Part shown: positions 9,591-28,686 of the stretch, one piece after another
How the letters are laid out: the number at the start of each line of letters is the position of its first letter
Position numbering within the stretch: position 1 is the stretch's first letter
Origin: an uncultured Gemmatimonadales bacterium
Lineage (GTDB): Bacteria; Gemmatimonadota; Gemmatimonadetes; Longimicrobiales; RSA9
NCBI GenBank assembly: GCA_963798085.1
Contig: CAWCRS010000007.1
Coordinates: forward strand, 608,001 to 672,000
Direction of reading: 5' to 3'
Length of the DNA stretch: 64,000 nucleotides
The notes under the pieces: generated by a model
Told to the model about the DNA's origin: nothing
What the model saw: the letters and a program-made list of their open reading frames with translations, nothing else
The model's database searches: none
Translations under genes and position numbers: made by a program

Positions 9591-9920
9591 ATGGACACTC
9601 GGAACTCGGCCTGGCCCGCGACACTGCGCTCCTTCACGCAGCGCAATGCCGGCCGGCGAACCGTCATGGAGGAAGACGCGCCGGAGATTGGCGCACAAGA
9701 GGAAGAGACGGACTACCCGTTCTGGGGCGCGACCTTCGACCCGCATGATGGCCGGGTACAGATCATGCTGGGCGAACAAGGCAGTGTAGAACAGCACCTC
9801 ACGCGATCGATCGAGGGTGCCAGCGACATTGGAGTGCTGCGCGATGATGACGGCCGCGACAGAGCGTTGCGGATCGTGCACGATACAGGTCAGACGCTGC
9901 TGCGATTCGTCGATCCCTGA
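9591..9920 (+). CDS. DUF5335-like small protein
   Basis: SD GGAGGT; W...L..FT.RNAGR, HLTRSI, ALRI...GQTLLRF pattern. Confidence 0.7.
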   Translation: MDTRNSAWPATLRSFTQRNAGRRTVMEEDAPEIGAQEEETDYPFWGATFDPHDGRVQIMLGEQGSVEQHLTRSIEGASDIGVLRDDDGRDRALRIVHDTGQTLLRFVDP

Positions 9921-9952
9921 GGGTTCAAGCAATACAGTTGAGCCAGCCGCCA

Positions 9953-11095
9953 ATGGCGCCATCCGACGGCGTGCCCCCCGGGGCCGCCGCTGCCGGCCAG
10001 TCCAGCAACCACTCTGGCGGCGCACACCGCGCGCCGCCGCCTGATCGGCCGGCCGAGCGCGGCGCGCTTGCGCCCGCCCTGCGCATCCCGCTGTTCTACA
10101 AGCTGCTCCTCGCCAACGGCATCATTGTAATCACGGTGGCCGGCGTGAGCGCGGCCCTGTCCAGGCATGTCTCCACCCTGGACCGTCCCGAATCCGCAAC
10201 GACGCCCTTCCTGCTGCTCGCACTGGGCGGCCTCCTGCTGACACTGGTGTTCAATGCCCTGATCGTCTGGCTGGCGCTTTCACCCGTGCGCGCGCTGGAA
10301 CAGGCCGCCGCGCGCGTGCGCTCCGGCGACTACTCGGCCCGCGCCACGGTCACGTCCGTGGCCAATGTGGAACTGGAGCGGCTGGTGGGCACCTTCAATC
10401 AGGTGCTCGACGCCGTGCAGGAACAGAACCGGCGCCTGCGCGAGCTGGCCGGCCGCGTCCAGACCGCCATGGAAGAGGAGCGCCAGCGCGTGGCGAGGGA
10501 ACTGCACGACGGGATCGCGCAATCTCTGGCGGCTCTGACGATCAGGGTCAAACTTGCACGCAACGCCACGGACAACGAAGTTCGGGCGTCCGTGCTCAAT
10601 GAGGTCAGCGGCGGCATCGCGGATGCCATTCTGGAGCTCCGGCGCATGGCGAAGGGCCTGCGGCCGCCGGCGCTCGAGACGCTGGGACTCGCGGCCGCCG
10701 TCGAATCACACGCCCGTGCAGTCGGCGAGAATTGCAATATTGTCGCAGAAATTACAACCGATAACGTTGCCGGGCTGCTCGCACCTGAAAACGAACTGAC
10801 GCTCTACCGGATTCTGCAGGAGAGTCTCTCGAATGTCGTCCAGCATTCGGGCGCGTCCCGGGTCGGGGTCGAGCTTCGGCGCAAGAACGGCAGTGTGCTC
10901 CTTGCAATCGAGGATGATGGCTGCGGCTTCGACACGGCCGTCGTACTCCAGGCCGACCGCAGCCTGGGTTTGTTCGGCATGAAGGAGAGGGCCTACTTCA
11001 TGGGCGGCAGTCTGGAAGTGAGCAGCGAAGTGGGTCGCGGTACTCGAGTGCAGGTCACAGTTCCTGTCCTGGAGGGAACAGCGCATGTCCGATGA
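9953..11095 (+). CDS. Membrane sensor histidine kinase (2 TM, HAMP, HisKA_3, HATPase)
   Basis: EEERQRVARELHDGIAQ, LRPPALETLGL, QESLSNVVQHS, EDDGCGFD, GLFGMKER. Confidence 0.93.
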   Translation: MAPSDGVPPGAAAAGQSSNHSGGAHRAPPPDRPAERGALAPALRIPLFYKLLLANGIIVITVAGVSAALSRHVSTLDRPESATTPFLLLALGGLLLTLVFNALIVWLALSPVRALEQAAARVRSGDYSARATVTSVANVELERLVGTFNQVLDAVQEQNRRLRELAGRVQTAMEEERQRVARELHDGIAQSLAALTIRVKLARNATDNEVRASVLNEVSGGIADAILELRRMAKGLRPPALETLGLAAAVESHARAVGENCNIVAEITTDNVAGLLAPENELTLYRILQESLSNVVQHSGASRVGVELRRKNGSVLLAIEDDGCGFDTAVVLQADRSLGLFGMKERAYFMGGSLEVSSEVGRGTRVQVTVPVLEGTAHVR

Positions 11096-11744
11096 TCTGA
11101 TCCGTATTCTCCTTGCGGATGACCACCAGGTCCTCCGTGCCGGGCTGAAGGCACTGCTCGAAGCGGAGCCCGACATGCGCGTGGTGGCAGAAGCATCAAC
11201 GGGCGAAGAGGCACTCGAGAAGACACGCTTCCTCAAGCCCGATGTCGTGGTCATGGACCTGTCCATGCCGGGCATTGGCGGACTCGAGGCGACGCGCGCC
11301 ATCACCAGCGAAGGCATCGCCAAGGTGCTGGTGCTCACCATGCACGCCGAAGAGGAATACCTGCTGCCCGTGCTGGAAGCCGGTGGCAGCGGCTACGTGA
11401 AGAAGACCAGCGCCGACGTGGACCTGACCGCGGCCATACGCACCGTAGCCAAGGATGAGGTGTTCCTCTATCCCAACGCGGCGAGGCTGCTGCTGCAGGG
11501 CTTCCGCGTGCGCGGTGAAAAGCGCGAGGATGATCCGCTCGACCGACTCACCGAACGCGAGCGCAATGTGCTGACCATGACCGCCGAAGGCTTCAGCTCC
11601 TCCGAAATCGGCGAGAAGCTCTTCATCTCTCCCAAAACGGTCGACACCTACCGCTCTCGCATCATGCAGAAGCTGGAGCTGACGCACCGTTCGGAACTCG
11701 TGCGCTTCGCCCTCAACGCGGGACTGTTGAAGCCGCAGCCGTGA
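11085..11744 (+). CDS. NarL/LuxR-family response regulator
   Basis: LADDH, VVMDLSMP, LTMH; HTH LTERE...EIGEKLFISPKTVDTYRSRIMQKL. Confidence 0.95.
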   Translation: MSDDLIRILLADDHQVLRAGLKALLEAEPDMRVVAEASTGEEALEKTRFLKPDVVVMDLSMPGIGGLEATRAITSEGIAKVLVLTMHAEEEYLLPVLEAGGSGYVKKTSADVDLTAAIRTVAKDEVFLYPNAARLLLQGFRVRGEKREDDPLDRLTERERNVLTMTAEGFSSSEIGEKLFISPKTVDTYRSRIMQKLELTHRSELVRFALNAGLLKPQP

Positions 11745-12025: not shown

Positions 12026-13427
12026 CTATTTGCCCGCCAGCGGATCCCCCACGTGACAGGCCTTGCAGATGATCGGGTTCTTCTGCTGCGCGCGTCTGGC
12101 GTCGAAATCCTTGCCGTGCGGACTCACCTGGAACGCGCCCAGTGTGGAGTGGCACTGCAGGCAGTCGCGCTGCTGGTGGCAGGACACGCACCCATCCAGG
12201 CCTCGCCGCGCGGCCGCCGCCGTGGCGCAGCAGCCAGAGCGGCTCCGCATCGTGGAAGACGGGGCTCAGCAGACGGCCCTGCGCCGTCTGGCCCGCCTGC
12301 TGGTGACAGCTGCGGCAGAACACCTTCGGATCGTGGCAGTTCGAGCACTCCATGCGGCCGTTGTAGGCGGACGCGGAATGCGAAACCATGAAATCCGGTG
12401 GATGGAAGCTGGCGCGCGCGGGCGCACTGTGGCACTGCTCGCAGAAGCTGGTGGTGTGACAGGTCGCGCACTCGTTGCGATCCGTAGCCGCCAGTCCTCC
12501 GTGATTGCTCGGGAACGAGGGCGAGGCATGCGACAGCGGCTTGCTGCGCTGCACGGATACGCCCTGCGCCGCCGTACTGGAACGCGACGGCAGCCCTGCC
12601 GCCACAGGCGGCAGTCGCTCGCTATGGCAGGTGGCGCAGCTCTCGCGCGTATGGCACGTCGCGCAGGCCGCGACGGATGCATCCCGGCCGTGTGTCACCG
12701 GAAAGTCTGACCGGTCGTGCGACGCGGGCTTCACATAGTGCGCCGCGATCGTTGCGTAAGGCAGTGTTTGGGGCGCTTCCGGGATGCGCGTGATCGCGTC
12801 CACGCGGGTCGCGTTCACGTGGCACGACGCGCACTGCTGGCGTACGTGACAGAACTGGCAGCTGGCTCCGCTCTGCTGTGCGGCGCGTCCGTGATCACTG
12901 AGGAACGTCGGGCTCGCGTGGCTGGTCGGTCTGGGAAGCGCTGCCAGTCTGTCCGCTGGCAGGTTGCTGCTGGCCAGGGCCGCGTGGCACGTCGAGCACG
13001 GCGCATCCACGTAGTGATCGGTTGCCGGATGCCCGTGGCAGCTCAGACAGGTGGTTGGCCGCGCTGGCGACACATGACCGGCCTGGTCGTGGCAGGAGGC
13101 ACACTGCAGCTGCGGGCTCTCGCTCGATGTCGCCTGCGCGTGGGTGGCGTGGCTGAAGCGCAGGAGCGTGACGCGCGGCGATCGCGGCGACCAGGTGACC
13201 CGGCGCACCTGCGTGCCATCGTGACAGCGTGCGCACAGCTCCGTGGCGGGAAAATGGTCCGCCACGTTGCCGCTCTCCATGACGTGGCAGCCGGTGCAGA
13301 ACGGGAACAGCCGGGCGTGCAGATCGTGCGGGAACGCGCTTTGTTGCCTCGCCGCGCGCGCCAGTACGCCGCCCGCGGCCAGCACGGCCAGCGCCACGCC
13401 GAGCAGCAGAACGCGCAGGGTCTTCAT
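12026..13427 (-). CDS. Periplasmic 16-heme c-type cytochrome (frameshift near 12220)
   Basis: Signal peptide; 13 CXXCH in ORF starting 13427 plus 3 CXXCH in ORF 12026..12250; many extra His as distal ligands. Confidence 0.9.
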
Positions 13428-14893
13428 CGGCCACCCAGGCGCGCACCCGGATCGCTGCCGAAGCCAATGCGCAGTGACGCAAAACCGCGCAGCTGGTTCC
13501 AGTCGGGCGTGCCCACGCGTCCCGTGAATGTCTGGTGGTAGATGTTGCCGCCCACATCGATGCCGGTGCGTGTGTTCAGGTCGTAACCCAGCGACGCGCC
13601 GCCACCCAGCACCGCACCCTCACCCACGCGGAATTCCTCGATCTGCTGGAACGCCGTGCCGTTCAGCGTGACCGTCAGGTGCTCGTTGGCCTGCCAGCGC
13701 GCGAAAGCGCGGCCCGAGCTGAGGAAGGCGCCGAAGCCCTTCTCGATGTCGTACTGTCCATCCAAGGTCCATGCCGCCCGCGGCGACCAGCGTGCACCCA
13801 CGCCGCCGCGCTGTGCATGGTCGGGCAGCTCGCTGATCACGATGGGTGCGTTGGTCGGCTGGTACTTGCGATAGCCGCCATTGGCGCGCAACGACAGCGT
13901 GCGCGACGGGCTCCAGCTTGCACGCAGCTCGCCCTCGTGGTAGGCGGCGGGATCGAAGAAGCCCCAGATCGTCCACAGCTCGAAGTACGGCACATAGCGG
14001 CGACCGGTGGCTTCGAGCCAGAACGAGCCGTTGCGGCCCAGCGGCGCACGCACCGTGACGTCCGATGTGCCCACGCGGTTGAAGGCGACGTCGTAGTCGC
14101 TCGACGCCGTGAGGCTCATGCGGCGGGGCAGCGGTGCGCGCAGGTCCAGCGAGGCGCGCTCCGAGAGCAGGCCGGACCGGTCCGACCAGATCTCGCGCTG
14201 ATAACGCGCTGTCAGGTTGATGCCGGGCAGCGGTTCGATCCAGGCGGCACCGCCCAGCAGCCATGCGCTGCGGTCCAGCACGAAGTCCTCGACATTCTGC
14301 AGCGCTGCGTTGCGCGGCTCGTCCAGGCCGCGCGCCAGGCTGCGGCCGCCATACGCCTCGATCTGCACGTGCCTGAGCGGCTCGCCCATCACGCTGGCGC
14401 CATCGAATCCCGCGAACCCCAGTCCGCTGGTGGAGCGCTGCCGGCCCACGCGCACCCGCCATGTGCTGCGGTCCAGCTCGAGGTAGGCGAGCATGGCGTC
14501 GAACGCATGGTCCGCGCGCGGCCACGTGAAATCGCTGCCCGCATCCGTTCGCGCGCGCACCAGCACCGTCGCGCTCAGCCCGGTGAGGCCCAGGCCCCAC
14601 GCCGTGAAGCTCACGTCTTCCGCCGCCAGTACCGCGTGCTCGACCCGGCCGGCCTCGTAGCGGATGCAGATGGGCTGGCCGGCGACGCACACGATGGGCA
14701 CACCCTGGTACGTGTATTCGCCGTTAGGGCCGGGCGTGGCGGCGCTGAGTGGAATCGTGTCGCGCACCAGCGGCCGGATCTGCACGTACTGCCCTGTGCT
14801 CGTGGCGGTGCCGCGCAGGCTCTGCGCTGCCGCCGGCGAGGTCATGGCGATGAGCCCCGTGAGACTGAGCCACAGCATGTGGCGCGCACTCAC
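13424..14893 (-). CDS. Putative outer-membrane beta-barrel (porin) between cytochrome genes
   Basis: Signal peptide, amphipathic Trp/Tyr-rich strands (AYLELDR, WRVRVGRQ, FASLRIGF); 4-nt overlaps with both neighbours. Confidence 0.75.
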   Translation of the reverse strand: MSARHMLWLSLTGLIAMTSPAAAQSLRGTATSTGQYVQIRPLVRDTIPLSAATPGPNGEYTYQGVPIVCVAGQPICIRYEAGRVEHAVLAAEDVSFTAWGLGLTGLSATVLVRARTDAGSDFTWPRADHAFDAMLAYLELDRSTWRVRVGRQRSTSGLGFAGFDGASVMGEPLRHVQIEAYGGRSLARGLDEPRNAALQNVEDFVLDRSAWLLGGAAWIEPLPGINLTARYQREIWSDRSGLLSERASLDLRAPLPRRMSLTASSDYDVAFNRVGTSDVTVRAPLGRNGSFWLEATGRRYVPYFELWTIWGFFDPAAYHEGELRASWSPSRTLSLRANGGYRKYQPTNAPIVISELPDHAQRGGVGARWSPRAAWTLDGQYDIEKGFGAFLSSGRAFARWQANEHLTVTLNGTAFQQIEEFRVGEGAVLGGGASLGYDLNTRTGIDVGGNIYHQTFTGRVGTPDWNQLRGFASLRIGFGSDPGARLGGR

Positions 14894-15567
14894 TGGTCAC
14901 CTCGCGCGTCATGGAAGGGGGGCAGAATGTGACAGTTCACACAGCGCTCGCCCGGACAATGCGTGGTGCGGTCGCGATGACACGAGACACAGACTTGTCG
15001 CGTGCGCGGGTCGCCCGCAATGAAATCGGGCTTGTGGCAGCTGCTCCCCGCGCAGCTCAGGTGCACCGCGAGCGGGTGCACGTTCGCCGGCGGCTGCGCG
15101 TGGCAGGCCGTACAGTCGCGCACGCTCTGGTGGTGATCCGCATGACAGGACGCACACAGGTTCGCCGCCACACTGCGCGTCTGCGCATCCGCGTGGCAGC
15201 GCGTGCACTCGACTGTCGCGTGCCGCTCGTGCACGAACGGCAGATTGCGCGGCAGCGGTGCGCGGTTCGCGATCGTCGCGGTCTGTGCGTACAGGTAGGT
15301 GTGTCCGGCATTGGCCGCCGGGGCATGGCAGTTGGCGCAGGTCTTCGACGTCGCCGTCTCGTGATGACAGCGCTGGCAGTCGGCAGGCCGCGAAATCGTG
15401 AGTTTGCCGTGCGCCTGCGTCGAGCTGTGGCACGTGCTGCACTCGAGCTTGCGATGCGGCTGATGCGAGAACGGCTGCTGGCGCGCCATTTCCTGCGCCC
15501 CGGCGCGCGCCGGCGTGATGCCACCCGCGAGCAGCAGACCGGAAGTCGCAAGGCAATAATTGAGCAT
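14890..15567 (-). CDS. Cytochrome c3-like multiheme protein, 8 CXXCH + 1 CX4CH (alternative GTG start 15621)
   Basis: FSHQPH..LECSTCH, CQRCHH, FVHERH..VECTRCH, CAGSSCH; signal peptide ending AGA. Confidence 0.9.
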   Translation of the reverse strand: MLNYCLATSGLLLAGGITPARAGAQEMARQQPFSHQPHRKLECSTCHSSTQAHGKLTISRPADCQRCHHETATSKTCANCHAPAANAGHTYLYAQTATIANRAPLPRNLPFVHERHATVECTRCHADAQTRSVAANLCASCHADHHQSVRDCTACHAQPPANVHPLAVHLSCAGSSCHKPDFIAGDPRTRQVCVSCHRDRTTHCPGERCVNCHILPPFHDARGDQ

Positions 15568-15720
15568 CCGCCGCACGCGCGAGCGCGGCCCTGCTGTCAG
15601 ACGCCGGAGCTGGGAAAGCACTCGTCGTGTTCCCGGTTCAGTGCGGTGGTAAATGGATCGACCCCGGAAGGCGGCTGTTCCGCCGGCCCTCCGAGGTCGA
15701 TCTGCGACTGCGTTCCTCCC

Positions 15721-17160
15721 TTACTTGATGCGCGTCTTCTGCAGAATGTTATCCAGCACGATGCCCGGAGGCGCCGTGATTCCGTAGTCCTTCGTGATCT
15801 GCTTGATGCTGCCCGTGACCAGTGCCTCGGTCAGGAACGGATTATGGATGACCGAGCCATCGAAGTCGCGCGCCAGGCTCAGGTCGAACGACGCACCCTC
15901 GCCGGTCGTCAGTTTGCCATCGCTCGTATTGAACTCCGTCGACGGAATCTTCTTGATCATCGCATCCAGCGTGTTGGTCAGCACGTCGATGCGACTTTGC
16001 GCGGCAATGAAGGCGGAGCGAGCCGATACCTCGGTGTGACAGCCGGTGGCGGCGCAGCTCTTGAACGTACGTGCGCTGATATCGCAATTACCAGCCGTCG
16101 GCAGACCCTTCGAGTCGAGGCAGGGAATGGGCTCGAACAAGTGCCCTGTCGCCTGGAACACGAAGCTGCCCGTATTCGGATCCGTCACCTGGAAACGATT
16201 CACATGGCACGTCGCGCACAGACGGGGATTCGAATCACTCCCGTGCGTCGCGACCAGCTCACCCGGGTTCACCCCGAAATCGGGCGGGAACCAGCCGGCG
16301 TTGCCCAGCAGCAGCGCACCCTGGGGCGCGTGCGGTCCGCGCGTAGAGGTCAGCTCCGGCGTGACGCGCCGGTCATGGCACTTCATGCACAGGTTCTGCT
16401 CTTCGCTCGGCACATCGATGGGGAAGCGCAACTGCGCGCTGTTGGCCTTCTCGTGCGGGTCGTGGCAGACGGCGCACACGATCGCCAGGTGCGCGCTCGC
16501 ATTGTTCGCCAGGCTGTCCTTCTCCAGGTAGTTCGAGTTGATGCCCCACGCCCGCAGAATGCCTTCGCCTACGTGGCAGCCCTGGCATGCGGTGTTGCCT
16601 GCCGGCGAGGGTTCGATGTTGGCGTGCAGCGACTGCCGCCACTCGGTCACGAACGGCTCGTGCGTGCCGCTGTGGCACTCGCCGCAGCCCGTCGTCAGAC
16701 CGGTGTCCACCTTCATCGGCGCCAGCGGCACGTTCGTCGCCTGCGGGTTCTGCACGTGCGTCAGACCCGGGCCATGGCAGTTCTCGCATTGCACGTCGTG
16801 GTAACGTGCATCCTTGGTCACTGTGTAGCCGCCGTCCGCGACCGTCTTGTTGCCCAGCGCGCTCACGGAGTGGCAGTTCTCGCACGCGGCAGACGCGTGG
16901 CCGCTCGCCTGCAGATCCGCCCAGGCGCCGGCGTGCTTGGTCTGCGCCCAGGACGTCTGGTTGTTGACGTGACAGTTGCCACAAACAGTGAGTTTGGTGG
17001 CTTCGTCCGTGTATCCCAGAAAGTTGGCGGCGCCCGGCGGTGGCTCGGTGAACAACTCGCGATCGCGGAATACGACCTTCTCGTCCACGCAACTGGCGCT
17101 CGCAAGACCGAGCAGAAGAATCAGGCTCAGTCGCTTGCCGTGTCCGGTTACGAGCGGCAT
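15721..17160 (-). CDS. Multiheme c-type cytochrome lipoprotein, 8 CXXCH + 1 CX4CH
   Basis: SD AAGGGGG; lipobox-like LASASC; CGNCH, CENCH x2, CGECH, CQGCH, CAVCH, CMKCH, CATCH, CAATGCH; helical C-term with DGSVIHNP. Confidence 0.9.
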   Translation of the reverse strand: MPLVTGHGKRLSLILLLGLASASCVDEKVVFRDRELFTEPPPGAANFLGYTDEATKLTVCGNCHVNNQTSWAQTKHAGAWADLQASGHASAACENCHSVSALGNKTVADGGYTVTKDARYHDVQCENCHGPGLTHVQNPQATNVPLAPMKVDTGLTTGCGECHSGTHEPFVTEWRQSLHANIEPSPAGNTACQGCHVGEGILRAWGINSNYLEKDSLANNASAHLAIVCAVCHDPHEKANSAQLRFPIDVPSEEQNLCMKCHDRRVTPELTSTRGPHAPQGALLLGNAGWFPPDFGVNPGELVATHGSDSNPRLCATCHVNRFQVTDPNTGSFVFQATGHLFEPIPCLDSKGLPTAGNCDISARTFKSCAATGCHTEVSARSAFIAAQSRIDVLTNTLDAMIKKIPSTEFNTSDGKLTTGEGASFDLSLARDFDGSVIHNPFLTEALVTGSIKQITKDYGITAPPGIVLDNILQKTRIK

Positions 17161-17603
17161 CCGTTCCCCCCTTATTACTGCCCAGCGTGTTGGGGCAGCC
17201 GATTCGCCGGCTGCCAGTCTCTGCTGCACGATCGTCATCGGTTTCTGCCGATGGACCTCGCGGTGGACCGGGCTCAAAGGGAGCGCGCACAGCCGCCCGC
17301 ACAGCCCGATGCTTCCCCGCGAACTCGCTTGTTATTCTAGGTAGTCTCCCGGAACCATTTCGCCAGCAAATGCCGGAATGGTTGTGGTGATTTTCCTGAC
17401 GCCGGTGTAGGGCGTATCAGCAAGTCTGCTTGCGTGTTAGCCTCGACGGCAGGGCGCCGCGGAAGGCCCTGATCGCCCGCCCGCGTACCCGTAACGATCG
17501 CCCGGCAATGCCCCAAACCCTTGCGGTATGTGCCGATAGCCCGCAAGCTACAAGGGTGGTTCGTGGGAGCGGCTCCCCTGCTCCCGCTTGGGACGACGAG
17601 TGA

Positions 17604-19652: not shown

Positions 19653-19822
19653 GCTTCGCGCACGCCGCGCGTCGCAGCACGTTGCCCCGCAAATCCAGCA
19701 CGCGTCGTCAGGTCGTCGCTTCCCGCCAGTCGTCCATCGCCCGACAGAGGCTCACCGCTCCGACCACCAGATTCCATGTATAGTGCGCGTGGAAGCGCAC
19801 GACGCGGTGAAGGGAGAGGACG

Positions 19823-20794
19823 CTGTTCCGATCGATTCTCGTGCCGCTCGACGGGTCCGCGTACGCGGAACAGGCGCTGGGCAGGGCCATGTGGGTGGCG
19901 AAGCGGGGCGCAGCCGCAGTGCGCCTGCTGCACGTGCGCCCGCCGCTCGTGGTACCCTACCACGTTGGCGCTGACATCGACGCGCTGCTGGCGGCGGAGA
20001 CATCCGTACGGCTGCACATGGGGGAGTACCTGGCGCTGCAGGCGAGGCGGCTCGGTCAGAGCGGTGACATCGCGGTTTCCAGCGAACTCGTCGAAGGTGC
20101 CGTCGTGCGCCGGATTCTGGAAACCGCGCGCGCGACAGGCAGTGATCTGATTGCCATGACCACGCACGGCAGCGGTGGTCTTTCGGATGCATGGCTGGGC
20201 AACGTGGCGGACGGCGTAATGCGCAATGCGCGCGTGCCGGTGCTGCTGGTGCGCGCGCGCCCTCGGCCGCCGGAACGCGCCGAGCCGTTCATCGGGCGCG
20301 TGCTCGTGCCACTGGATGGCTCGGCGCAATCCGAGACCGTGCTGGCTCCCACAACAGCCCTGGCCCGCATGGCTGCGCTCGCCGTCACCGTTCTCGCCGT
20401 GGTGACGTTGCCTGTCAGCGTGGGGGAGCCACCGATCATGCTGGGCGGCGCGCCGGATCCGGCGGAAGAGTACCGCCGCGCCAACGACTACGTACAGCGT
20501 GCCGAGGCGCAGCTGCGCGCCAGTGGCGTGGACGCCGTGGGCATCGTGCGCGTAGGACTGCACCCCGCCTCCGTGATCCTGGAGACGGCGAGCGAGCTGG
20601 ACGCGCACATCGTGGTCATGGCGACGCACGGGCGGAGTCGCCTGCACCGGCTGTCGATGGGAAGTGTATCGGACAAGGTGCTGCGCAGCACGCACGTGCC
20701 GGTGCTGCTGGTGCGACCGCCCGCGGACAGGCGAACCGTGCGTCCGTCCGACAGGGGCTACAGCAATGCGGGGCGGCAGGCCCGGCACGAATGA
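19823..20794 (+). CDS. Tandem-domain universal stress protein (apparent CTG start)
   Basis: FRSILVPLDGS, MTTHGSGG...LGNVADGV, second VLVPLDGS...ATHGRS..MGSVSDKVLR. Confidence 0.92.
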   Translation: MFRSILVPLDGSAYAEQALGRAMWVAKRGAAAVRLLHVRPPLVVPYHVGADIDALLAAETSVRLHMGEYLALQARRLGQSGDIAVSSELVEGAVVRRILETARATGSDLIAMTTHGSGGLSDAWLGNVADGVMRNARVPVLLVRARPRPPERAEPFIGRVLVPLDGSAQSETVLAPTTALARMAALAVTVLAVVTLPVSVGEPPIMLGGAPDPAEEYRRANDYVQRAEAQLRASGVDAVGIVRVGLHPASVILETASELDAHIVVMATHGRSRLHRLSMGSVSDKVLRSTHVPVLLVRPPADRRTVRPSDRGYSNAGRQARHE

Positions 20795-20814: not shown

Positions 20815-21369
20815 ATGACAACGTTGCGGGAAATCATGACGCGCGATCCTGTGACCGTGGGGCCGGAAGCGACCCTGCGCGAGCTGGTCGAGCTGCTCAC
20901 CAATCGATCGATCAGCGGCGTCCCTGTCGTGACCGGTTCCGGCGAAGTGGTGGGCGTCATCTCGGCGACCAATGTGCTCTCCTTCACCGCAAGTACGCCC
21001 GCGATACCCTCAGACCGCTCCGAATCGCTGGCCGAATGGGGCGAGGAACCGGACACGTCCGACGAAGACGACGAATCGACGCCCGAGTTCTACGCCGAGC
21101 TGTGGGCCGACTCGGAGGCAGACGTGCTCACGCGCGTCGATGGCGCCACCTCGCCGGAATGGGATCTGCTCGAGGAGCACACCGTGAGTGAAGTGATGAG
21201 CCGTCGCCTGCAGTCGGTTCCCATCGACGCGGACCTGCCGACCGTGGCCCGGCGCATGATCCGCGCTGGCGTGCACCGGTTGCTCGTACTGGAAGACAAA
21301 CACCTGGTTGGGCTGGTGACCACCACCGATTTCGTGCGCGCCGTGGCGGAGCGGCGCATCCCCGCCTGA
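20815..21369 (+). CDS. CBS-domain pair protein with acidic insertion
   Basis: EIMTRDPVTV, ISGVPVV, VVGVIS, VSEVMS, VHRLLV, LVGLVTTTD; SD GGAGG. Confidence 0.9.
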   Translation: MTTLREIMTRDPVTVGPEATLRELVELLTNRSISGVPVVTGSGEVVGVISATNVLSFTASTPAIPSDRSESLAEWGEEPDTSDEDDESTPEFYAELWADSEADVLTRVDGATSPEWDLLEEHTVSEVMSRRLQSVPIDADLPTVARRMIRAGVHRLLVLEDKHLVGLVTTTDFVRAVAERRIPA

Positions 21370-21387: not shown

Positions 21388-22476
21388 TCAGGTGGTGAAG
21401 CGCAGACGCGCGCCAATCCCCTCCGCCGCGTTATCGAGCTTCGTCGCCGCCCCCGCCAGCAGCTCTTCCACATCGGCATCCTGCTCGAACGCCGCTCCCA
21501 CACAGAAATCCGAGTATTCCGGGTCCTTCTGGCGCAGGTGCTTCGACAGCAGCAGCACTTCGACGCGGCGCTCGGCGAGAGCGCGATCCGTGCCCGTGCG
21601 TCCCAGGCAGCCTCGCCCGCCCGCCCCGGCCAGCTCGATCACCTGCTCGAGCGTGCGCTGCTGGCGCCGCTCCGTCATCGCCGACGCAGCCGTTTCCGCC
21701 GCACGCTTCAGCTCGGCCGTTGATTGATAGAAGCTGAGCGACGGGTCCTCCGTCACACGCCCATTCAACGTGCGCGGCAGTCGCTGCACCGTCGCAGCGG
21801 TCATTTCCGTGGTGCCGCCCACCAGGACGGTGCCTTCCGCACCGGCGTGCTCGCGAATCGCTTCGGTAAGCGCCTTGAGCAGGCGTTCCGAGCCGACTTC
21901 CTCGAAGCGACGCGCTGCGTCAGTGTCCGTTTCGCCGCGCACGCCGCTGTGCGTCGTCGCCCGCTTCGACATGTTCACATCGCGCAGGTCGCCGAAGAAC
22001 ATGTCCGCTCGCAGCTCGGGCAGTTCCTCGAACGCGCCCTGCCGGTAGCGGTACAGCCTCGCCTGCCGGCTGTCCACCAGCACGGTGATCACCGGGACCG
22101 CCTGTTTCAGCGCACGCACGTACGGCGCGACACGCAGGCCGTCTTCCCAACGTGCCAGGTCCGGCATCGGGACCGGCAGCGTCTCTGCGTAGAGCACGGC
22201 GTCCGGTGTCGCGAAGCCGGCCCAGCCGCGCTCCGGCAGGAACGCGTCGTAGCGGCGCAGCTCCTTCTTCAGATGACCGAGTGCGCTGTCCCACGCCTGG
22301 CGCTCGGCGACACTCTCACCGACGCCGCGCTGCGCGTCGGCCACCACGTGATCCAGTGCGCGGCGCCATGCGCGGCGCTTGGCCGGATCGTGCTCGTCCG
22401 CGTTCAGGTAGATGCTCAGCACACGCTCGCTGCGGTGCTTGCGATAGAGTCCGACGAGTTCTTCTCGTGTAAGCAT
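21388..22476 (-). CDS. Bacterial archaeo-eukaryotic release factor (baeRF)-like protein
   Basis: VLSIYL N-domain, VLVDSRQARLY middle domain, ALAERRVEVLLL and terminal GIGARLRF; no GGQ. Confidence 0.8.
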   Translation of the reverse strand: MLTREELVGLYRKHRSERVLSIYLNADEHDPAKRRAWRRALDHVVADAQRGVGESVAERQAWDSALGHLKKELRRYDAFLPERGWAGFATPDAVLYAETLPVPMPDLARWEDGLRVAPYVRALKQAVPVITVLVDSRQARLYRYRQGAFEELPELRADMFFGDLRDVNMSKRATTHSGVRGETDTDAARRFEEVGSERLLKALTEAIREHAGAEGTVLVGGTTEMTAATVQRLPRTLNGRVTEDPSLSFYQSTAELKRAAETAASAMTERRQQRTLEQVIELAGAGGRGCLGRTGTDRALAERRVEVLLLSKHLRQKDPEYSDFCVGAAFEQDADVEELLAGAATKLDNAAEGIGARLRFTT

Positions 22477-22600
22477 GATCAACCCCACTCCCTCACGATG
22501 ACAGAACGCATCATAGATCAGGAGAGGCGGGTTGGAAAAGGGCAGGGCCGAAGTCGGGTGCCCCCACACGCGCGAGATGCGCGCGCGAGAGGCCACGTCA

Positions 22601-24943
22601 TCAGAATCGCATCAGATAGCTGAGCTTGATGAAGAAGCCGTCGCTGGTGCGTCGCAGATCGTGCAGGCTCACCGTGGCATCGGCGCCCATGCTGCTGCCG
22701 TACCCGAGGAACACCACGGTGCCGGGCGTGGGCTGATAGGAGAGCAGCCAGTCCGCGCGGAAGCGGGCCCGGCGATAGCCGGCGGCGGGTACGCAGTCGG
22801 TCGCGCCCGCGTCGCACAACAGGATCGGGCGTTCCGTACGCGAGTCATCGCGCAGGTCAGCCTGGCGATTCGCGTCATACTCGCCCACCAGGCGGAGGAA
22901 CAGCGGCCGCGCCACCTGGTACTCGAGCTTGAGCCGGGGAATCTGGCGCAGGCCCACCGAGCTGCCGTCACTGAAACGCTGGTAGCGCTGCAGCACGTAA
23001 TTGCCCGTTATCCTCGCCTTGTCCGTGGGCCGCCACTGCGCGCTCAGCGTGGCCAGCAGTACCCACGACTTCGACCACTCGAAGAAGTTCTCGTCGCGGC
23101 CACCGATCAGAAACGCATTGGCGGAAAATGTCTTGTACTGCGGCGTGGCCAGCGTGAACTGGGCATCGTAGTTGGCAATGCGGTCGACACCCACGTACGG
23201 CACCGTGTCCGTACCCGTGTCGATGAAGTAGTTCGTGTACAGTTCGACCGGGTACTTGAACGATTCGAGCAGCAGCGCGTAGCCCGTGTGCCAGCCGCCG
23301 CGCAGCGTGAAGTCGCCGCCCACGTGGAATTTCTGGTCGTCGGGCACGTCGCCGGCCGTGAAGTGATCCCAGGTCCAGGTGCCATCCAGGTTGACGTACT
23401 GCGTGTAGTTCTCGATGAACGCAGCACGCCGGCCGTAGAACGTCCAGGCGGGCCGCACGTTGGCGTGCGCGATGCCTGCGCGGTTCACAAAACCGGCCGC
23501 GGCCACGAACTCGTTGTGTATGCCCTGGAATGCGGTGGCGAGACCGAAGTGCCGGTCGCGCACGGCACCGGTCGCTGTGAAAATCGGGCGCCACGCATTG
23601 GCGCCCGCATCGGTGCGCGTGAAGCTCGCGCCGGCCTGCAGGCTGAGCGCGTACTTGTCGCCGAACACCAGTCGCGCATCGGTTGCCGCGACGCGGTTGT
23701 AGTCACTGCCTTCCACGCGATCCGTGTAGGCCAGGCCCACCGTCGAGCTGTGACCTATGTCGCGACGGATGCGCAGCAGATTGAACACGGGGTGCGCGCC
23801 GGAGGCCGAAAGCGCGTCGTCGTCCACAGCCGACAGCACGCCCAGGTCGGTGCCCGACACCTTGCCGGTGAATTTCGCCGCCCCGACCGGCGACACGATG
23901 CGCCGGGTGTAGATCAGGCGGTTCGGCGTGCTGAAGTTCTCGCTGGCCTCCAGGAAGAAAGGACGCTTTTCCGGGAAGAACAGCGCCTGCCGGGGATCGA
24001 ACGTGAGCTGGCTGGCATCCGACTCGACCTGCGAAAAATCCGGATTAAGGGTGGCGTTCATCGTGAGGTTCGCGCTCACGCCCCAGCGCAGGTTGAGGCC
24101 GGGCTCCGGCCGCTGGCCATCATACTGCCAGCGCCCCAGTGAGTCGGGCGCGCCATCCGTCCTCGCCGTGATCACCGGATTCGCATCCAGCACCAGCCCC
24201 CGCCGCAGGTCGGTGAGCCCGGTGAGCGTGCCACTCTGCGCCAGGAACGAAGCGCGATCGCGCCGCGCCGGCGTCCACGTCTGCAGATACCCCGAGTGTT
24301 GCACGCCACGCAGGATGTTAATGCCCCACGTCTGCACCTTGTCCGGCTGGTAGCGCAGGCTCTTGAAGGGAATACGGATCTCCACTTCGTAGCCGAAGTC
24401 GGTGAGGCGGCCCTTCGATTCGAACACGAAGTCAGGGCTCAGGTCCAGACCCGGATTCAGATCGCTGCCCGACACATCGGCCATCACGCCATCCGCCTGT
24501 ACACCAAACGGGTTCACGCTGAAGACGAGGGCGCGACGATGGTCGTTGAACGTGTCGAGCAGAAACTCGATGTAGTCGTCGGCGCCAATGTGGTCGCGGT
24601 CCGGCAGCGAGGCGTGCACCACGCCGTGCGGCTCGAAGGCGCGTACACCGAGCCGGATCTCGTGCTCATCGTAGAAGATCAGGACCTCGGTGGAATCCTC
24701 GGCGGCCACGCCATCATTCGGCTGGAACTGCGAGAAGCCCGTCAGCAGCGCAGCCTGCTGCCAGACCGGCTCGTCGAGCACCCCATCGATGCGCACGCGT
24801 CCACTCAGCCGCGGCACACGCACTTCCGTCCGATTGAGACGTCCGTTGTAGACTTCCGGCGGATCGGCGGTGGCGAGTGTGGCGGCGAGCAGGACACCGA
24901 GCATGCGTTGCGTACTCCTCGTTTGCCCGGGCAAATGCATCAC
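22601..24943 (-). CDS. CBM9-like + DUF5916 outer-membrane protein
   Basis: IDGVLDEPVW, VEIRIPFKSLRY, NPDFSQVESD, FFPEKRPFFLE, C-term FFIKLSYLMRF. Confidence 0.88.
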   Translation of the reverse strand: MMHLPGQTRSTQRMLGVLLAATLATADPPEVYNGRLNRTEVRVPRLSGRVRIDGVLDEPVWQQAALLTGFSQFQPNDGVAAEDSTEVLIFYDEHEIRLGVRAFEPHGVVHASLPDRDHIGADDYIEFLLDTFNDHRRALVFSVNPFGVQADGVMADVSGSDLNPGLDLSPDFVFESKGRLTDFGYEVEIRIPFKSLRYQPDKVQTWGINILRGVQHSGYLQTWTPARRDRASFLAQSGTLTGLTDLRRGLVLDANPVITARTDGAPDSLGRWQYDGQRPEPGLNLRWGVSANLTMNATLNPDFSQVESDASQLTFDPRQALFFPEKRPFFLEASENFSTPNRLIYTRRIVSPVGAAKFTGKVSGTDLGVLSAVDDDALSASGAHPVFNLLRIRRDIGHSSTVGLAYTDRVEGSDYNRVAATDARLVFGDKYALSLQAGASFTRTDAGANAWRPIFTATGAVRDRHFGLATAFQGIHNEFVAAAGFVNRAGIAHANVRPAWTFYGRRAAFIENYTQYVNLDGTWTWDHFTAGDVPDDQKFHVGGDFTLRGGWHTGYALLLESFKYPVELYTNYFIDTGTDTVPYVGVDRIANYDAQFTLATPQYKTFSANAFLIGGRDENFFEWSKSWVLLATLSAQWRPTDKARITGNYVLQRYQRFSDGSSVGLRQIPRLKLEYQVARPLFLRLVGEYDANRQADLRDDSRTERPILLCDAGATDCVPAAGYRRARFRADWLLSYQPTPGTVVFLGYGSSMGADATVSLHDLRRTSDGFFIKLSYLMRF

Positions 24944-25159
24944 GGCGAGGAACGGCGGGCCTCACGCGAGGTATTCCCGACAGTGACCTGACGTCGCTGG
25001 CAGGCAACCGGCGCCGGGCCGCGCGGGCTGTCCTCAACATCCCTCGTGCACGAATTCCGCGCGGAGGGTACGCGGCCGGGGCGCCGTACGCAATCAGGGC
25101 GGGATGGATGCCTGCGCTGGAAGGATCAGAAGATGCCGCGCGGGTCGAATGGGGGCGTC

Positions 25160-26149
25160 ATGCAGGCAATGGTGCTTAAGGCGCAGCGACAGCCGCTCCG
25201 CGCGACCGAGCTGCCCGTGCCTGAGCCGGCCGCGGGGCAGCTGCTGTTGCGTGTGCGCTGCTGCGCGGTCTGCCGCACCGACCTGCACGTGATTGATGGC
25301 GATCTGACACGACCGAAGCTGCCCCTGGTTCCCGGTCACGAGATCATCGCCGACGTGGTCGCGGCCGGTGCGGGTGTGAGCGGCTTCGCGGCGGGCCAGC
25401 GCGTGGGCGTGCCCTGGCTGGGCTGGACCTGCGGCGTCTGCGACTTCTGCCGCACCGGCCGCGAGAATCTCTGCGATAATGCGCGCTTCACCGGCTACGA
25501 CATCAATGGCGGCTACGCCGAGTACACGGTTGCCGACCACCGCTACTGTCTGCCCGTGCCCGCGGACTGCCCCGACCTGCAGGCGGCGCCGCTCATGTGC
25601 GCCGGTCTCATCGGCTACCGCTCGCTGCGCATGACCGGTACTGCTCTAACACTCGGTTTCTACGGCTTCGGCGCGGCCGCGCACATCCTGACGCAGGTGG
25701 CGCGGCACGAGGGCCGCCGCGTGTTCGCCTTCACCCGCCCGGGCGATGTCAGCGGGCAGGCCTTCGCCCGGTCGGTGGGCGCCGAATGGGCCGGCGGCAG
25801 CGACGAGGCGCCACCCGAGCCGCTCAATGCCGCCATACTCTTCGCACCCGTGGGCGCACTGGTGCCCGCTGCGCTGCGCGCTGTCAGGAAGGGCGGCACC
25901 GTGGTGTGCGGTGGCATACACATGAGCGACATTCCGCGCTTCCCGTACGAGCTGCTCTGGGGCGAGCGCGTGCTGCGCTCCGTGGCCAACCTCACGCGCC
26001 AGGATGGCCTCGATTTCCTGGAGCTGGCGCCCCGTGTGCCCGTGCACAGCACGGTCCACACCTATCCCCTGGAAGCGGCTAACACCGCGTTGGACGACTT
26101 GCGGGCCGGGCGCCTGGAAGGCGCGGCCGTGCTGCAGGTGCAGCCGTGA
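25160..26149 (+). CDS. Zinc-dependent alcohol dehydrogenase
   Basis: VCRTDLH, GHE, CGVCDFC...ENLC, GFYGFGAAA. Confidence 0.93.
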   Translation: MQAMVLKAQRQPLRATELPVPEPAAGQLLLRVRCCAVCRTDLHVIDGDLTRPKLPLVPGHEIIADVVAAGAGVSGFAAGQRVGVPWLGWTCGVCDFCRTGRENLCDNARFTGYDINGGYAEYTVADHRYCLPVPADCPDLQAAPLMCAGLIGYRSLRMTGTALTLGFYGFGAAAHILTQVARHEGRRVFAFTRPGDVSGQAFARSVGAEWAGGSDEAPPEPLNAAILFAPVGALVPAALRAVRKGGTVVCGGIHMSDIPRFPYELLWGERVLRSVANLTRQDGLDFLELAPRVPVHSTVHTYPLEAANTALDDLRAGRLEGAAVLQVQP

Positions 26150-26730
26150 GTCTGCTGCGCCGCTTCCGCCGCCTGCCGGATCAGCTGACGCTGCTGCGCC
26201 TGCTGCTGGCCGGCCCGCTCTGGCTGCTGGCGCTGCTGCATTGGCGTCATGCGCTCGGAGTGGGCATGGCTGTGGCCGGCACCACCGACATGCTGGATGG
26301 CTGGCTGGCCCGCCGCGCCGGCCGCACCTCGCGTTTCGGCAGTCAGCTGGATTCTGTGGCGGACGTCGTGCTCTTCTGCTCCATCGCCATCTGGGTGGCC
26401 ATGCTGCGGCCCGAATTCTACCGCCAGTACACGGGACTGCTGCTGCTCTGGGCGGGCCTGGGCATGCTCACACTGGCTGTGGGCTGGGTGCGCTTCCGCC
26501 GCCTGGCCAATCTGCACCTCTATTCCGCCAAGGCGGCGGGCGTCATCGGCTACCTGTTCGCGCTCTACATGATCATGTTCGATGCGCCGGCGGCGCCCTT
26601 CTTCTACGTCGCGCTAACCCTGGCGTTCGCCGGCTCGCTGGAGACACTGGCCATGCTGCTCACGCGCTCGCGCGTCGATGAGCACGGCGGCAGCATCCTG
26701 CGCCCGCGACCGGGCAGCCGTTCCCTCTGA
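26146..26730 (+). CDS. CDP-alcohol phosphatidyltransferase family protein
   Basis: LPDQLTLLR; DMLDGWLARR....SRFGSQLDSVAD signature; multi-TM. Confidence 0.88.
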   Translation: MSLLRRFRRLPDQLTLLRLLLAGPLWLLALLHWRHALGVGMAVAGTTDMLDGWLARRAGRTSRFGSQLDSVADVVLFCSIAIWVAMLRPEFYRQYTGLLLLWAGLGMLTLAVGWVRFRRLANLHLYSAKAAGVIGYLFALYMIMFDAPAAPFFYVALTLAFAGSLETLAMLLTRSRVDEHGGSILRPRPGSRSL

Positions 26731-26752
26731 CAGCGCGTCAGGGGCGCACCGC

Positions 26753-27241
26753 TCACACATCGAAGATCACGCTTGCCTGCCAGCCGTCCCCGGTTTCCTT
26801 CAGTTCCAGTGCGTGGTAGGTCACACCTTTGATCTCCTGCAGCGCCGCCGCCGCGCAGGGAGCCAGCGCCACCTGCGCGCGCAGCCGCGTCGGCTCCAGC
26901 AGCGGGAACGCGGCGCCGGCGTAGCACTGCCCGCGCACCTGGGCGAGGAACAGCAGCTCGCGCAGCCACGCCGCGAGCAGCAGCGCAGGGTCGTCCGCCT
27001 CCAGCTCCAGCATGACAGACGATGCAGCGGCGGCAGCGGGCGAGGCAGGCCCGGTCGCGGCGCCAGCGGGCGCTGCGGGATCCGGGCGCAGGAACGCCAG
27101 CATGCCGAGCGCCGCGCGCTGGAACAGCGTGTGCGCATCGGGTGCGGTCACGCGCATCCCAATGTCTGCGGTGTGATCGAGCGGGTAAACGCCGGCGGGG
27201 AAGCCGGGCTCGCGCCGCTGCTGCGCATCGCGGCGCATCAT
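26753..27241 (-). CDS. Archease
   Basis: DHTADIG, EIKGVTYH and C-terminal VIFDV motifs. Confidence 0.9.
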   Translation of the reverse strand: MMRRDAQQRREPGFPAGVYPLDHTADIGMRVTAPDAHTLFQRAALGMLAFLRPDPAAPAGAATGPASPAAAAASSVMLELEADDPALLLAAWLRELLFLAQVRGQCYAGAAFPLLEPTRLRAQVALAPCAAAALQEIKGVTYHALELKETGDGWQASVIFDV

Positions 27242-27278
27242 GATCCCGTCTTCCCGCCGACGCTGCGGGCCGGCCTGC

Positions 27279-27767
27279 TCAGGGCGACGTGGACGCGAGG
27301 CGGCCGTGCAGCTCCTGCACGGCAATGCCAAACACGATGTTGCGGAACGGCACAGGGTCTCCCTCAGCCAGCGTTTCCGGCAGCAGGCGGCGCAACGCCC
27401 CGAGCGCGCGCTGATAGCGGGCGACATCCTGCTCCGTGCCGCCGGGCGCGAGCGGGTAGAAACCGCCGTTCACGACCACGCTGCGCCAGTCGAAGGCGCC
27501 GTCCACTTCATCCACGGCCAGGGCCACCCACCAGTTGTGCGAGAGCGCGTCCAGCTTCTCGCCATCCGAGGTGCGGCCCCAGATCCACTCACCGTCGTAC
27601 ACGTAGTGGATGGGACGGATGTCGACGCGCCGGTCCGTCCGCGCAAATGCCAGCCTCGCCACACTGTTGCGTCGCAGCACCGCCTCGCACTGCGCGCGGC
27701 TCAGCGAGTCGAAGCGCGGCTCAGATCGTGGCGCCTGCGGCCTCGCTGCCAACCGGGATTCGCTCAT
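27279..27767 (-). CDS. Pyridoxamine 5'-phosphate oxidase-like flavin-binding protein
   Basis: LSRAQCEAVLRRNSVARLAF, PIHY, GEKL, VDEVDGAFDWRSVVVNG. Confidence 0.85.
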   Translation of the reverse strand: MSESRLAARPQAPRSEPRFDSLSRAQCEAVLRRNSVARLAFARTDRRVDIRPIHYVYDGEWIWGRTSDGEKLDALSHNWWVALAVDEVDGAFDWRSVVVNGGFYPLAPGGTEQDVARYQRALGALRRLLPETLAEGDPVPFRNIVFGIAVQELHGRLASTSP

Positions 27768-28686
27768 GGCTCACCATCGACGGACGGTACACCATCACCG
27801 GACACACGGCGCCGCGCAACACCTTGTCCGCGACGCTGCCCAGCGCCAGCCGCGACCAGCCGCCTCGCCCGTGCGTGGCCAGCGCGACCAGACTCACCGC
27901 ACGCGTCGCCGCGAACTCGAGAATGGCGGCGGCGGGCACGGCATCACTCACGACCGCGATTTCCACGTCCAGGCCACGGGCACGCAGCGGCTGCGCGACG
28001 CGTTCCAGCTCCTCCCGCGCATGCGAGCGCTGCTCGCTGGCCAGGTTCTCCGAGAAATCTTCCGCTGTCAATGCCACAGGCGGACGCAGCATGGGCACAG
28101 GCAGCACGACACGCATGAGCGTGTAGCGCGCGCCGAAATAGGATCCCAGCTGTATTGCCGGCCCGAGTACGCCTTGCGACAGTTCGGACCCATCGAGCGG
28201 CACCAGGATGTGCTGTGGCCGGATTTCTTCGGCCAGATCGACCGCCTCGTGCTCGGGCCGCAGCACCAGCACCGGTACACCGCCCCGTCGCATCACACCA
28301 TCGGTGACGCTGCCCAGCCACACGCGCGAAATACCGCCGCGGCCGTGCGTGGTCATCACGATGAGATCGATCTCCATCTCGCGGGCGTACGTCGCCAGCG
28401 CCGTGGCCGGCGTTCCATCCACCAGCTCCGTGCGCACGGAAACGCCGTGCTCGCTCAGCCGTGCGGCGACCGAATACAGGTACTCGCGCTCCTGCGTGCG
28501 CAGTCCCTGGTCCCAGCGACCATCGTAGGTGACCAGTGCGTCGGGCGCAGCCGTGACCACTGGCACCTCGTGAGCCTGTACGAGATGAATCCGCGCACCC
28601 GATCGCCGCGCGATGCCCAGCGCCACAGGCAACGCATGCTCCGCGAACGTCGAACCGTCCAGCGGGACCATGATCGTCCTGTTCAT
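27721..28686 (-). CDS. Tandem-domain universal stress protein
   Basis: TIMVPLDGS, MTTHGRGG..WLGSV, HILVPLDGS, ATHGRGG..LGSVADKVLR; SD GGAGG. Confidence 0.93.
   Translation of the reverse strand: MNRTIMVPLDGSTFAEHALPVALGIARRSGARIHLVQAHEVPVVTAAPDALVTYDGRWDQGLRTQEREYLYSVAARLSEHGVSVRTELVDGTPATALATYAREMEIDLIVMTTHGRGGISRVWLGSVTDGVMRRGGVPVLVLRPEHEAVDLAEEIRPQHILVPLDGSELSQGVLGPAIQLGSYFGARYTLMRVVLPVPMLRPPVALTAEDFSENLASEQRSHAREELERVAQPLRARGLDVEIAVVSDAVPAAAILEFAATRAVSLVALATHGRGGWSRLALGSVADKVLRGAVCPVMVYRPSMVSHERIPVGSEAAGATI

Follow-up and report, generated by a model that had tools for sequence, protein, structure and literature searches.

A palindrome upstream of stress genes and a porin-cytochrome operon points to a predicted low-oxygen-type regulon in Gemmatimonadota

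The window analyzed here is a stretch of 64,000 nucleotides from the 6.2-Mb genome of an uncultured Gemmatimonadales bacterium (G000:C7:608001-672000, ~67% G+C; G, C, L and f numbers are our handles for genomes, contigs, loci and families), which we take to be a diderm, as a member of the Gemmatimonadota. It carries an island of stress-protein genes, a sensing module predicted to consist of three proteins (a HAMP-HisKA_3 kinase, a NarL-type regulator and a FixL-like haem-PAS kinase) and an operon of four minus-strand genes encoding a lipoprotein cytochrome, a small cytochrome, a barrel and a 16-haem cytochrome, with 34 haem motifs in all (Table 1). An original prediction described a DosR-like hypoxia island surrounding the cytochrome cluster. 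The two are co-located, but the cytochrome operon lies within the sensing module, reversed between the regulator and the PAS kinase, as it also does in G001, G010 and G023, where the island gene order repeats. The gene families named were confirmed, all scoring above the Pfam cut-off, and DUF5335, CBS, baeRF, archease, PNPOx and CDP-alcohol phosphatidyltransferase (CDP-OH) are single copies in the genome by tblastn with the window proteins. The inventory needed two additions, DUF5916 and CDP-OH. Two universal stress proteins (USPs) are present as proposed, but as tandem-domain proteins ~7 kb apart rather than as adjacent genes. Stress genes and cytochrome operon have an upstream palindrome in common; conservation of this regulatory linkage is strong, and we consider a shared regulon highly probable.

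The palindrome was obtained from stress-gene promoters only. Nine of 62 such promoters were dropped (one distant alcohol dehydrogenase (ADH), three CBS genes of family f3, one at a contig start and four divergent-promoter duplicates), and expectation maximization (EM) on the remaining 53 returned nGTcGGGaAaTtCCCgACn, a 19-bp palindrome of the form TGTnGGGAAWTTCCCnACA. At width 16 the log-likelihood was 60 for the palindromic and 100 for the free model, compared with 26-36 and 58-64 for shuffles; at width 19, which had no matched null, it was 88 and 132. Scores of at least 12 bits were reached by 8 of 20 cytochrome promoters in an initial held-out set, and by 3.3% of 2305 genome promoters. A second held-out set comprised the 50 testable loci out of 69; in the other 19 the first gene was not intact or the DNA upstream of it was missing. 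Here 31 of 50 cytochrome promoters reached 12 bits, compared with 29 of 197 control promoters from the same loci and at most 3 of 50 for Markov shuffles, and column-permuted matrices (n=100) averaged 6.6 and peaked at 21, compared with 24 observed. The gene upstream of the 31 sites was co-directional in 18 cases, divergent in 11 (three of them hydrogenase genes) and absent in two; the 18 sites behind a co-directional gene therefore cannot serve a divergent one.

EM on the cytochrome promoters alone converged on tGTnGGGaaattCCCnACa, and this matrix correlated with the stress-trained one at r = 0.97. When it was applied to the stress promoters, 23 of 53 exceeded the genome's 95th percentile, with passes for DUF5335 (4/4), USP (10/18), CBS (2/3), baeRF (2/9), PNPOx (1/4) and ADH (0/3). 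The pattern with 5-bp spacing was found in 22 of 50 cytochrome promoters and in 35 of 2305 background promoters, that with 6-bp spacing in 6 of 50, and a 4-bp variant was not enriched in cytochrome promoters. Secondary sites in relatives lay most often at offsets of +23, -22 and -23 bp.

Within the window, the site ahead of the DUF5335-kinase-regulator operon predicts autoregulation. At the divergent cytochrome/PAS-kinase promoter, the primary site scored 16.0 and 17.2 bits by the two matrices and its flanks (17361, 17406) ~10 bits. Since strong sites occupy the left of the island and weak sites or none the right, there is good support for direct control of the left half, whereas for part of the right such control is doubtful. 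Of 20 loci, nine have a site ahead of the HisKA_3 gene itself and four more have one ahead of a DUF5335 gene that heads a HisKA_3 operon, three of these four being training sites. A 17-bit palindrome also stands outside the island at 36961-36979, upstream of an S41 peptidase gene (37069-38382).

Top-scoring promoters across the whole genome include those of two hydrogenases, one of them a membrane hydrogenase operon transcribed divergently from a molybdopterin oxidoreductase (18.7 bits), and those of a ba3-type oxidase, a V/A-ATPase, thioredoxin, malic enzyme and an NDH-2-like flavoprotein; many other top matches are without clear link and may be due to chance. In the fetched loci, sites of at least 12 bits preceded ba3 oxidase (4/4), hydrogenase (7/13) and V-ATPase (4/6) genes, and operon-internal petB in 0 of 19 cases. 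Several of the hydrogenase sites lie in a divergent promoter common with the cytochrome operon. No site of at least 10 bits was found upstream of the HPF, Crp and ccm genes of this genome, nor upstream of RtcB. The COX1 gene of G013, at first considered an NO reductase, was reassigned as ba3-type.

Table 1. Predicted sites and genes of the island (window positions).
Feature	Position	Strand	Basis or remark
Strong site upstream of DUF5335-kinase-regulator operon	9463..9481	.	15.3 bits, cytochrome-trained matrix; 99.4th percentile of 3024 genome promoters
DUF5335 protein	9591..9920	+	Pfam PF17269; Atlas 0.97
HAMP-HisKA_3 membrane kinase/phosphatase (HAMP+HisKA_3+HATPase)	9953..11095	+	Pfam; start uncertain
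NarL/LuxR-type response regulator, receiver+GerE, Asp58; predicted palindrome reader	11085..11744	+	Pfam
16-haem cytochrome, signal peptide, frameshifted	12026..13427	-	
Plug-less outer-membrane beta-barrel, ~22 strands	13424..14893	-	AlphaFold
Small cytochrome, 8 CXXCH + 1 CX4CH	14890..15621	-	Motif count
Lipoprotein cytochrome, 8 CXXCH + 1 CX4CH; operon's first gene	15721..17160	-	
Three tandem sites, 22-23 bp spacing, divergent cytochrome/PAS-kinase promoter	17361..17424	.	Primary 17383-17401
Cytoplasmic PAS-PAS-GAF-HisKA-HATPase kinase, predicted O2 sensor	17604..19652	+	Pfam
Weak site upstream of USP1-CBS	19728..19746	.	8.4 bits, 93rd percentile, cytochrome-trained matrix
USP1, tandem-domain (double-domain) USP; start probably CTG at 19823	19823..20794	+	Pfam
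CBS-pair protein	20815..21369	+	Pfam
baeRF_family10 protein, Balon-like	21388..22476	-	Pfam
DUF5916 protein, secreted; syntenic passenger	22601..24904	-	Pfam
Half-site upstream of ADH	24964..24982	.	Half-site 99.7th percentile, full site 93rd
Zn-binding alcohol dehydrogenase, ADH_N, TIGR02822 subfamily	25160..26149	+	Pfam; NCBIfam above cut-off
CDP-alcohol phosphatidyltransferase	26146..26730	+	Pfam
Archease	26753..27241	-	Pfam
PNPOx-like protein, Pyridox_ox_2	27279..27767	-	Pfam
USP2, tandem-domain; heads USP-PNPOx-archease run	27721..28686	-	Pfam

The cytochrome operon, with its plug-less barrel and its periplasmic and lipoprotein multihaem cytochromes, is predicted to have the layout of a porin-cytochrome conduit. 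The AlphaFold model of the barrel (pLDDT 81) has ~22 strands and no plug, and superimposes on the PirA barrel with a VIA Z of 19.7 and a root-mean-square deviation of 4.1 over 363 aligned positions. The Pfam scan assigned the barrel to no family, PF11854 (MtrB/PioB) included, which does match the true MtrB of G014; in Foldseek MtrB ranked just 18th among generic barrels, a result uninformative on family. Of the best 80 relatives of the barrel gene, 75 are from Gemmatimonadota (several from Longimicrobiales) and one is from Ca. Eisenbacteria. A lipobox-like Cys is present in 60 of 66 open reading frames (ORFs) homologous to the lipoprotein cytochrome, whose PDB matches are 6i5b (the best, presumably OcwA) and 6qvm. 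The 16-haem gene is frameshifted at ~12192-12208, so that its last three CXXCH fall in another frame; 69 of 79 homologous ORFs hold 16 CXXCH in a single frame. One DNA sequencing run (share 0.07) gave no contig spanning the break, and the assembly holds further frame breaks, in a paralogous porin, a nitrilase and an AP endonuclease. In the window, the AP-endonuclease-like gene (6516-7405) and the nitrilase gene (28799-29840) are each split over two frames, which suggests indel errors in the assembly.

Relatives have a NapC-anchored protein of 17 haems, of which the small cytochrome matches just the C-terminal half. The NapC-like N-terminal half is a separate gene on another contig (G000 C1:68100-69227; 39% identity to the fused N-terminal half, E 3e-75), which has its own upstream site of 16.6 bits. 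A second free-standing multihaem gene with a similar N-terminus lies near C8 32831-34688. In relatives, the second cytochrome is of the 17-18-haem form in 29 of 55 cases, a form that was NapC-like in three of the four Pfam-scanned. Barrel loci further include Rieske or cytochrome b genes (11-12/69) and uptake hydrogenase genes (13/69). The genome also holds a paralogous porin-cytochrome operon (C10:103452-111506, L090) that leads into genes for a 9-haem cytochrome, a Rieske protein and a cytochrome b; its barrel gene is split, and its 12-bit site is more distant upstream than that of most copies. The G001 operon (L038:815-8320) encodes, besides two lipoprotein cytochromes, proteins with 11 and 21 haems and a cytochrome b. 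A barrel with signal-peptide multihaem cytochromes, a lipoprotein cytochrome and a NapC-like quinol module also make up MtrCAB with CymA, Geobacter Pcc and PCC3. The present operon differs from Mtr and Pcc in its ~22-stranded barrel without MtrB Pfam match and in its cytochromes of 16 and 8-9 haems, and from Mtr in a lipoprotein whose best PDB match is 6i5b and not MtrC.

The direction of electron flow through such a conduit has two readings. The same low-oxygen regulon might instead serve import, with Fe(II), reduced humics or partner cells as electron sources for a co-induced ba3 oxidase under microoxia, a reading that we judge improbable. NapC-like and Rieske/cytochrome b modules can work in either direction, the ba3 oxidase has a site in all four loci and shares the island of the conduit in G070, and the passages of PMC11316326 available to us indicate that iron reduction and oxidation are hard to distinguish in Gemmatimonadota. 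Against import, the quinol-side modules counted above accompany the operon, as does, in its 13 loci, the uptake hydrogenase, an electron donor; outward flow fits these companions more simply.

The sensing module bears on the signal. The HAMP-HisKA_3 protein has two transmembrane helices, a ~17-residue loop and a HAMP domain, with no GAF or PAS. Its His185 is intact and recurs in 16 of 19 aligned homologues, and Gln190, five residues on, is invariant; DxxxQ is the HisKA_3 phosphatase motif. In two homologues (L036:9466-10539 and L063:8336-9367) the phospho-His is replaced by Arg or Tyr and the Gln is retained. Being nearly sensorless, and with the Gln kept better than the His, this protein may act mainly as a resetting phosphatase or as a second input. 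The PAS-PAS-GAF kinase has no transmembrane helix, and its second PAS is FixL/DosP-like, with His208 and Arg228. A PDB search with this PAS gave 10jx (a kinase PAS) as the top match, and the next 13 were all FixL or DosP PAS domains. His208 aligns with the haem His of FixL and is invariant in 17 of 17 homologues, as is an Arg 20 residues past it, which falls one column off the FixL Arg in the HMMER alignment. In FixL, the O2-binding Arg has the same 20-residue offset from the haem His. The second PAS is thus predicted to be a FixL-type haem O2 sensor. DosS and DosT were absent from the best 60 of the 61 PDB matches of the PAS-kinase profile, which does not amount to exclusion.

We regard it as unlikely that the regulon is read by this regulator in response to a signal other than O2, either because the haem senses NO, CO or redox or because the HisKA_3 kinase is the true activator and senses membrane or quinone state. 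NarL regulators usually pair with HisKA_3 kinases, and the HisKA_3 kinase here keeps its His185, but its loop is short for a sensor and the His is gone in 3 of 19 homologues. The regulator adjoins NrfAH, NirK and Rrf2 genes in G012, where a 16.6-bit site lies between the NrfA-type operon and Rrf2-NirK, and NirK with a Crp-type gene in G008; ba3 oxidase and USPs, on the other hand, are classic low-O2 genes, and the invariant Arg corresponds in offset to that by which FixL binds O2. The haem-PAS kinase is present in 11 of 20 fetched regulator loci, and adjoins or nears the regulator in G011, G043, G055, G070, G111 and G127.

The regulator itself matched UvrY/GacA best among NCBIfam models (172 bits, below cut-off) and scored 82 bits on the FixJ model, whose cut-off is 255. 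DevR was its second PDB match (E 2e-35), at 126 bits compared with 138 for VraR, and of DevR K179, K182 and N183 it retains K182 alone. Sites at its own operon and its presence in 42 of 43 barrel-positive genomes point to it as the reader of the palindrome. By family, among 150 genomes of the order, regulator matches were found in 42/48, 10/63 and 37/39, and barrel matches in 34/48, 9/63 and 0/39. In G014 an MtrA-MtrB pair (L060:6380-9139) with its own 16.7-bit site directly follows the regulator, a second conduit type tied to it.

That the palindrome is bound by another, unlinked regulator, with the two-component genes merely among its targets, has in our view a low probability. G039 has the conduit, yet its closest regulator match is just 39% and its 11.7-bit score overlaps the estimated start, and Crp-family genes are present in the window's genome. 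Fnr, Crp, Rex and GacA patterns, however, occurred in 0 of 50 cytochrome promoters. The half-site, moreover, resembles LuxR-type-read sites, those of FixJ (TAAGTAATTTCCCTTA, GTAGTTTCCC; as given in the accessible part of PMC4999443) and GacA (TGTAAG; likewise from part of PMC4353343), and the operon sites and co-occurrence just described also argue against an unlinked reader.

Conservation of the gene neighborhood, which the original prediction had proposed as a check, mostly did not hold up. After removal of 11 loci already seen, the barrel survey left 69 loci, 38 of them with near-full 10-kb flanks; within 10 kb, these 38 carried at least one stress gene in 8, at least two in just one and a regulator gene in three. 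Neighbors were labeled by blastp against our own query set, so stress families not listed there would be missed. Conservation of physical cytochrome-stress linkage is thus weak, and mostly absent, although a differently ordered second island unites the same parts in G011 and G070. We give almost no weight to a chance landing of a separately regulated cytochrome operon in a stress island, for, despite these sparse neighborhoods and a G127 island that lacks cytochromes and has the kinase next to the regulator, the site accompanies the operon wherever it has moved (31/50), the second island order joins the same parts, and the held-out motif test largely refutes it.

The other island genes bear on the remaining parts of the programme originally proposed. 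For ribosome hibernation, the baeRF10 protein is Balon-like (NF052288, E 4.5e-19, below cut-off; 8v9j, E 0.003, weak) and has no Gln in the catalytic-loop motif of nine aligned sequences, which makes such a role plausible, but only two of nine baeRF promoters have a site. In the portion of PMC6514570 available, family 10 baeRF is reported with the Gln, unlike the window protein. The fermentation part found no support: the ADH belongs to TIGR02822, a subfamily of unassigned substrate, and no ADH promoter of three passed the full-site threshold. USP2 matches TB31.7 (2jax, E 7e-8); the family labels of the other M. tuberculosis genes compared below are those we presume them to have. The apparent USP1 start is a CTG (19823-19825), or else an assembly error. 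RtcB ligase, the usual partner of archease, is encoded ~150 kb from the window archease (G000 C7:481439-482905) and adjoins CDP-OH in G023. It closes a second stress cluster ~130 kb ahead of the window (C7:468434-482905, L088), with a phosphoribosyltransferase, two USPs, a haem-PAS kinase paralogue with a sigma54-type regulator, and Hsp20 (11-bit site). Directly past RtcB (C7:483516-491197, L181), a flavo-FeS protein is encoded together with cytochromes of 19 and 27 haems. In G010 (L022:16103-17737) and G001 (L038:16724-18325), unlike in the window, the island is followed by genes for a MerR/B12-binding regulator and a fasciclin.

Of the known systems, DosS/DosT-DosR (DevR) of mycobacteria and OsdKR of Streptomyces likewise have a NarL-type regulator with two kinases, one of which is here predicted to be haem-based. 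The cargo first likened to that of DosR is borne out, with USP, CBS, baeRF, archease, PNPOx-type and Hsp20 families all found in this analysis; Rv0080, Rv2623, Rv2624c, Rv2626c, Rv2629, Rv2630 and Rv3129 are listed as hypoxia-induced in the accessible passages of PMC4082495. Primary and secondary tandem sites are also common to both (PMC3177182; for cargo, kinases and sites, see also PMC4082495 and PMC5069765, all as partly available). Membership in the DosR family, as first suggested, does not appear to hold for sensor or operator. In the DosR system the haem sits on GAF-A at His149 of a HisKA_3 kinase (PMC4082495, same passages), whereas here haem is predicted to bind a PAS of FixL type, carried by a HisKA kinase; the GAF of the island belongs to that kinase, whose invariant His is in PAS, and the HisKA_3 protein carries HAMP and no GAF. 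Where the Dev box has 18 bp and GGG-x-C half-sites, the operator here is a palindrome of odd length (19 bp), its GGG and CCC stand 5 bp apart and a C7 is not essential. No cytochrome promoter (0/50) or stress promoter (0/53) contained the exact Dev core; with one mismatch it matched 20/50 and 19/53, compared with 737 of 2305 background promoters. Targets here also take in a porin-multihaem operon, ba3 oxidase and hydrogenase, and the host is a diderm.

The alphaproteobacterial FixL-FixJ(-FixK) system shares with the island a haem-PAS HisKA kinase, a LuxR-type regulator, microoxic targets and a similar site core (TAAGTAATTTCCCTTA, in the part of PMC4999443 cited above). It differs in that the regulator here appears to be no FixJ orthologue, and in the extra GAF domain and HAMP-HisKA_3 partner. 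As neither the 50 cytochrome promoters nor the 53 stress promoters contained the Fnr/FixK pattern, control looks direct and not via FixK boxes. The FixJ and FxkR logos of PMC4999443 may bear on the novelty of the palindrome. The lxa locus of Burkholderia cenocepacia, likewise a diderm, clusters genes of the USP, BON-type, ADH, small heat-shock and ATPase kinds and has a promoter motif common to distant loci too, but that motif is Fnr/Anr-like (TGA-N6-TCA) and the passages of PMC3721108 available to us describe no porin-multihaem operon. The literature search found no paper on the present regulon, with most subscription journals and RegPrecise outside its reach.

We propose the following mechanism, on predicted functions. 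O2 on the PAS haem would hold the kinase off, as in FixL, and its loss would lead to phosphorylation of the regulator, with the HAMP-HisKA_3 protein serving chiefly as a resetting phosphatase or as a second input. Once phosphorylated, the regulator would bind the tandem sites cooperatively and induce the cytochrome operon along with its own, as well as ba3 oxidase, V/A-ATPase, uptake hydrogenase and proteins of USP, CBS, BON and Hsp20 type. Electrons could then pass from quinol to the NapC-like membrane cytochrome, which is encoded elsewhere under its own site, and on through the periplasmic cytochromes, the barrel and the lipoprotein cytochrome to an extracellular acceptor. For the whole chain, from O2 loss through haem-PAS kinase, regulator and palindrome to stress genes and porin-cytochrome operon, we hold the case to be evenly balanced. 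The genes, their domains and the spread of the motif are observed; oxygen as the signal, the wiring of the module, binding by the regulator and outward electron flow are the steps that we infer.

Several observations weigh against this reading. Pairing of a HisKA-class kinase with this regulator is conjectural, the regulator is far from FixJ (82 vs 255 bits), and that the NarL-type regulator would read the palindrome is suggested by own-operon sites and co-occurrence. Family f3 has the regulator in 37 of 39 genomes but the porin in none. The direction of flow is not readable from sequence, and the 16-haem gene of this genome is frameshifted. Among the sites, baeRF (48th percentile) and USP2 (65th, a poor site) have none in this genome, the rates in relatives are low for baeRF (2/9), ADH (0/3) and PNPOx (1/4), 19 of 50 cytochrome promoters fall short of 12 bits, and G023 keeps the island with a cytochrome promoter lacking a site (6.3 bits). 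One of the 100 column-permuted matrices reached 21 against the 24 observed, and significance is overstated since relatives are not independent.

The low-oxygen-type programme originally proposed, including the cytochrome operon, nevertheless gains from the common palindrome, the FixL-like haem PAS and the predicted ba3 and uptake hydrogenase targets. The island thus appears to belong to a low-oxygen-type regulon that is not a DosR member, with predicted direct control of an unclassified porin-cytochrome operon as its notable feature. In the available text of PMC11316326, Gemmatimonadota are described as widespread, with few cultured species, which are chemoorganoheterotrophs. We offer only tentatively, as a proposal somewhat apter to fail than to hold, that an undescribed three-protein O2 switch (FixL-like kinase, phosphatase-biased HisKA_3 partner, and NarL regulator with a 19-bp operator) may be the master low-O2 regulator of many Gemmatimonadota, directly co-inducing an unclassified trans-envelope wire of 34 haems together with dormancy proteins, hydrogen uptake and high-affinity oxidase, which would make this major phylum of soil and sediment a cryptic extracellular respirer in anoxic spells. 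With an operator motif, a candidate regulator and a candidate O2 sensor, the low-oxygen physiology of Gemmatimonadota becomes testable, and the motif also locates unlinked pathway parts, such as the missing quinol-side cytochrome on another contig. If the proposed mechanism is true, dormancy-type cargo and extracellular electron transfer would be two outputs of one switch.

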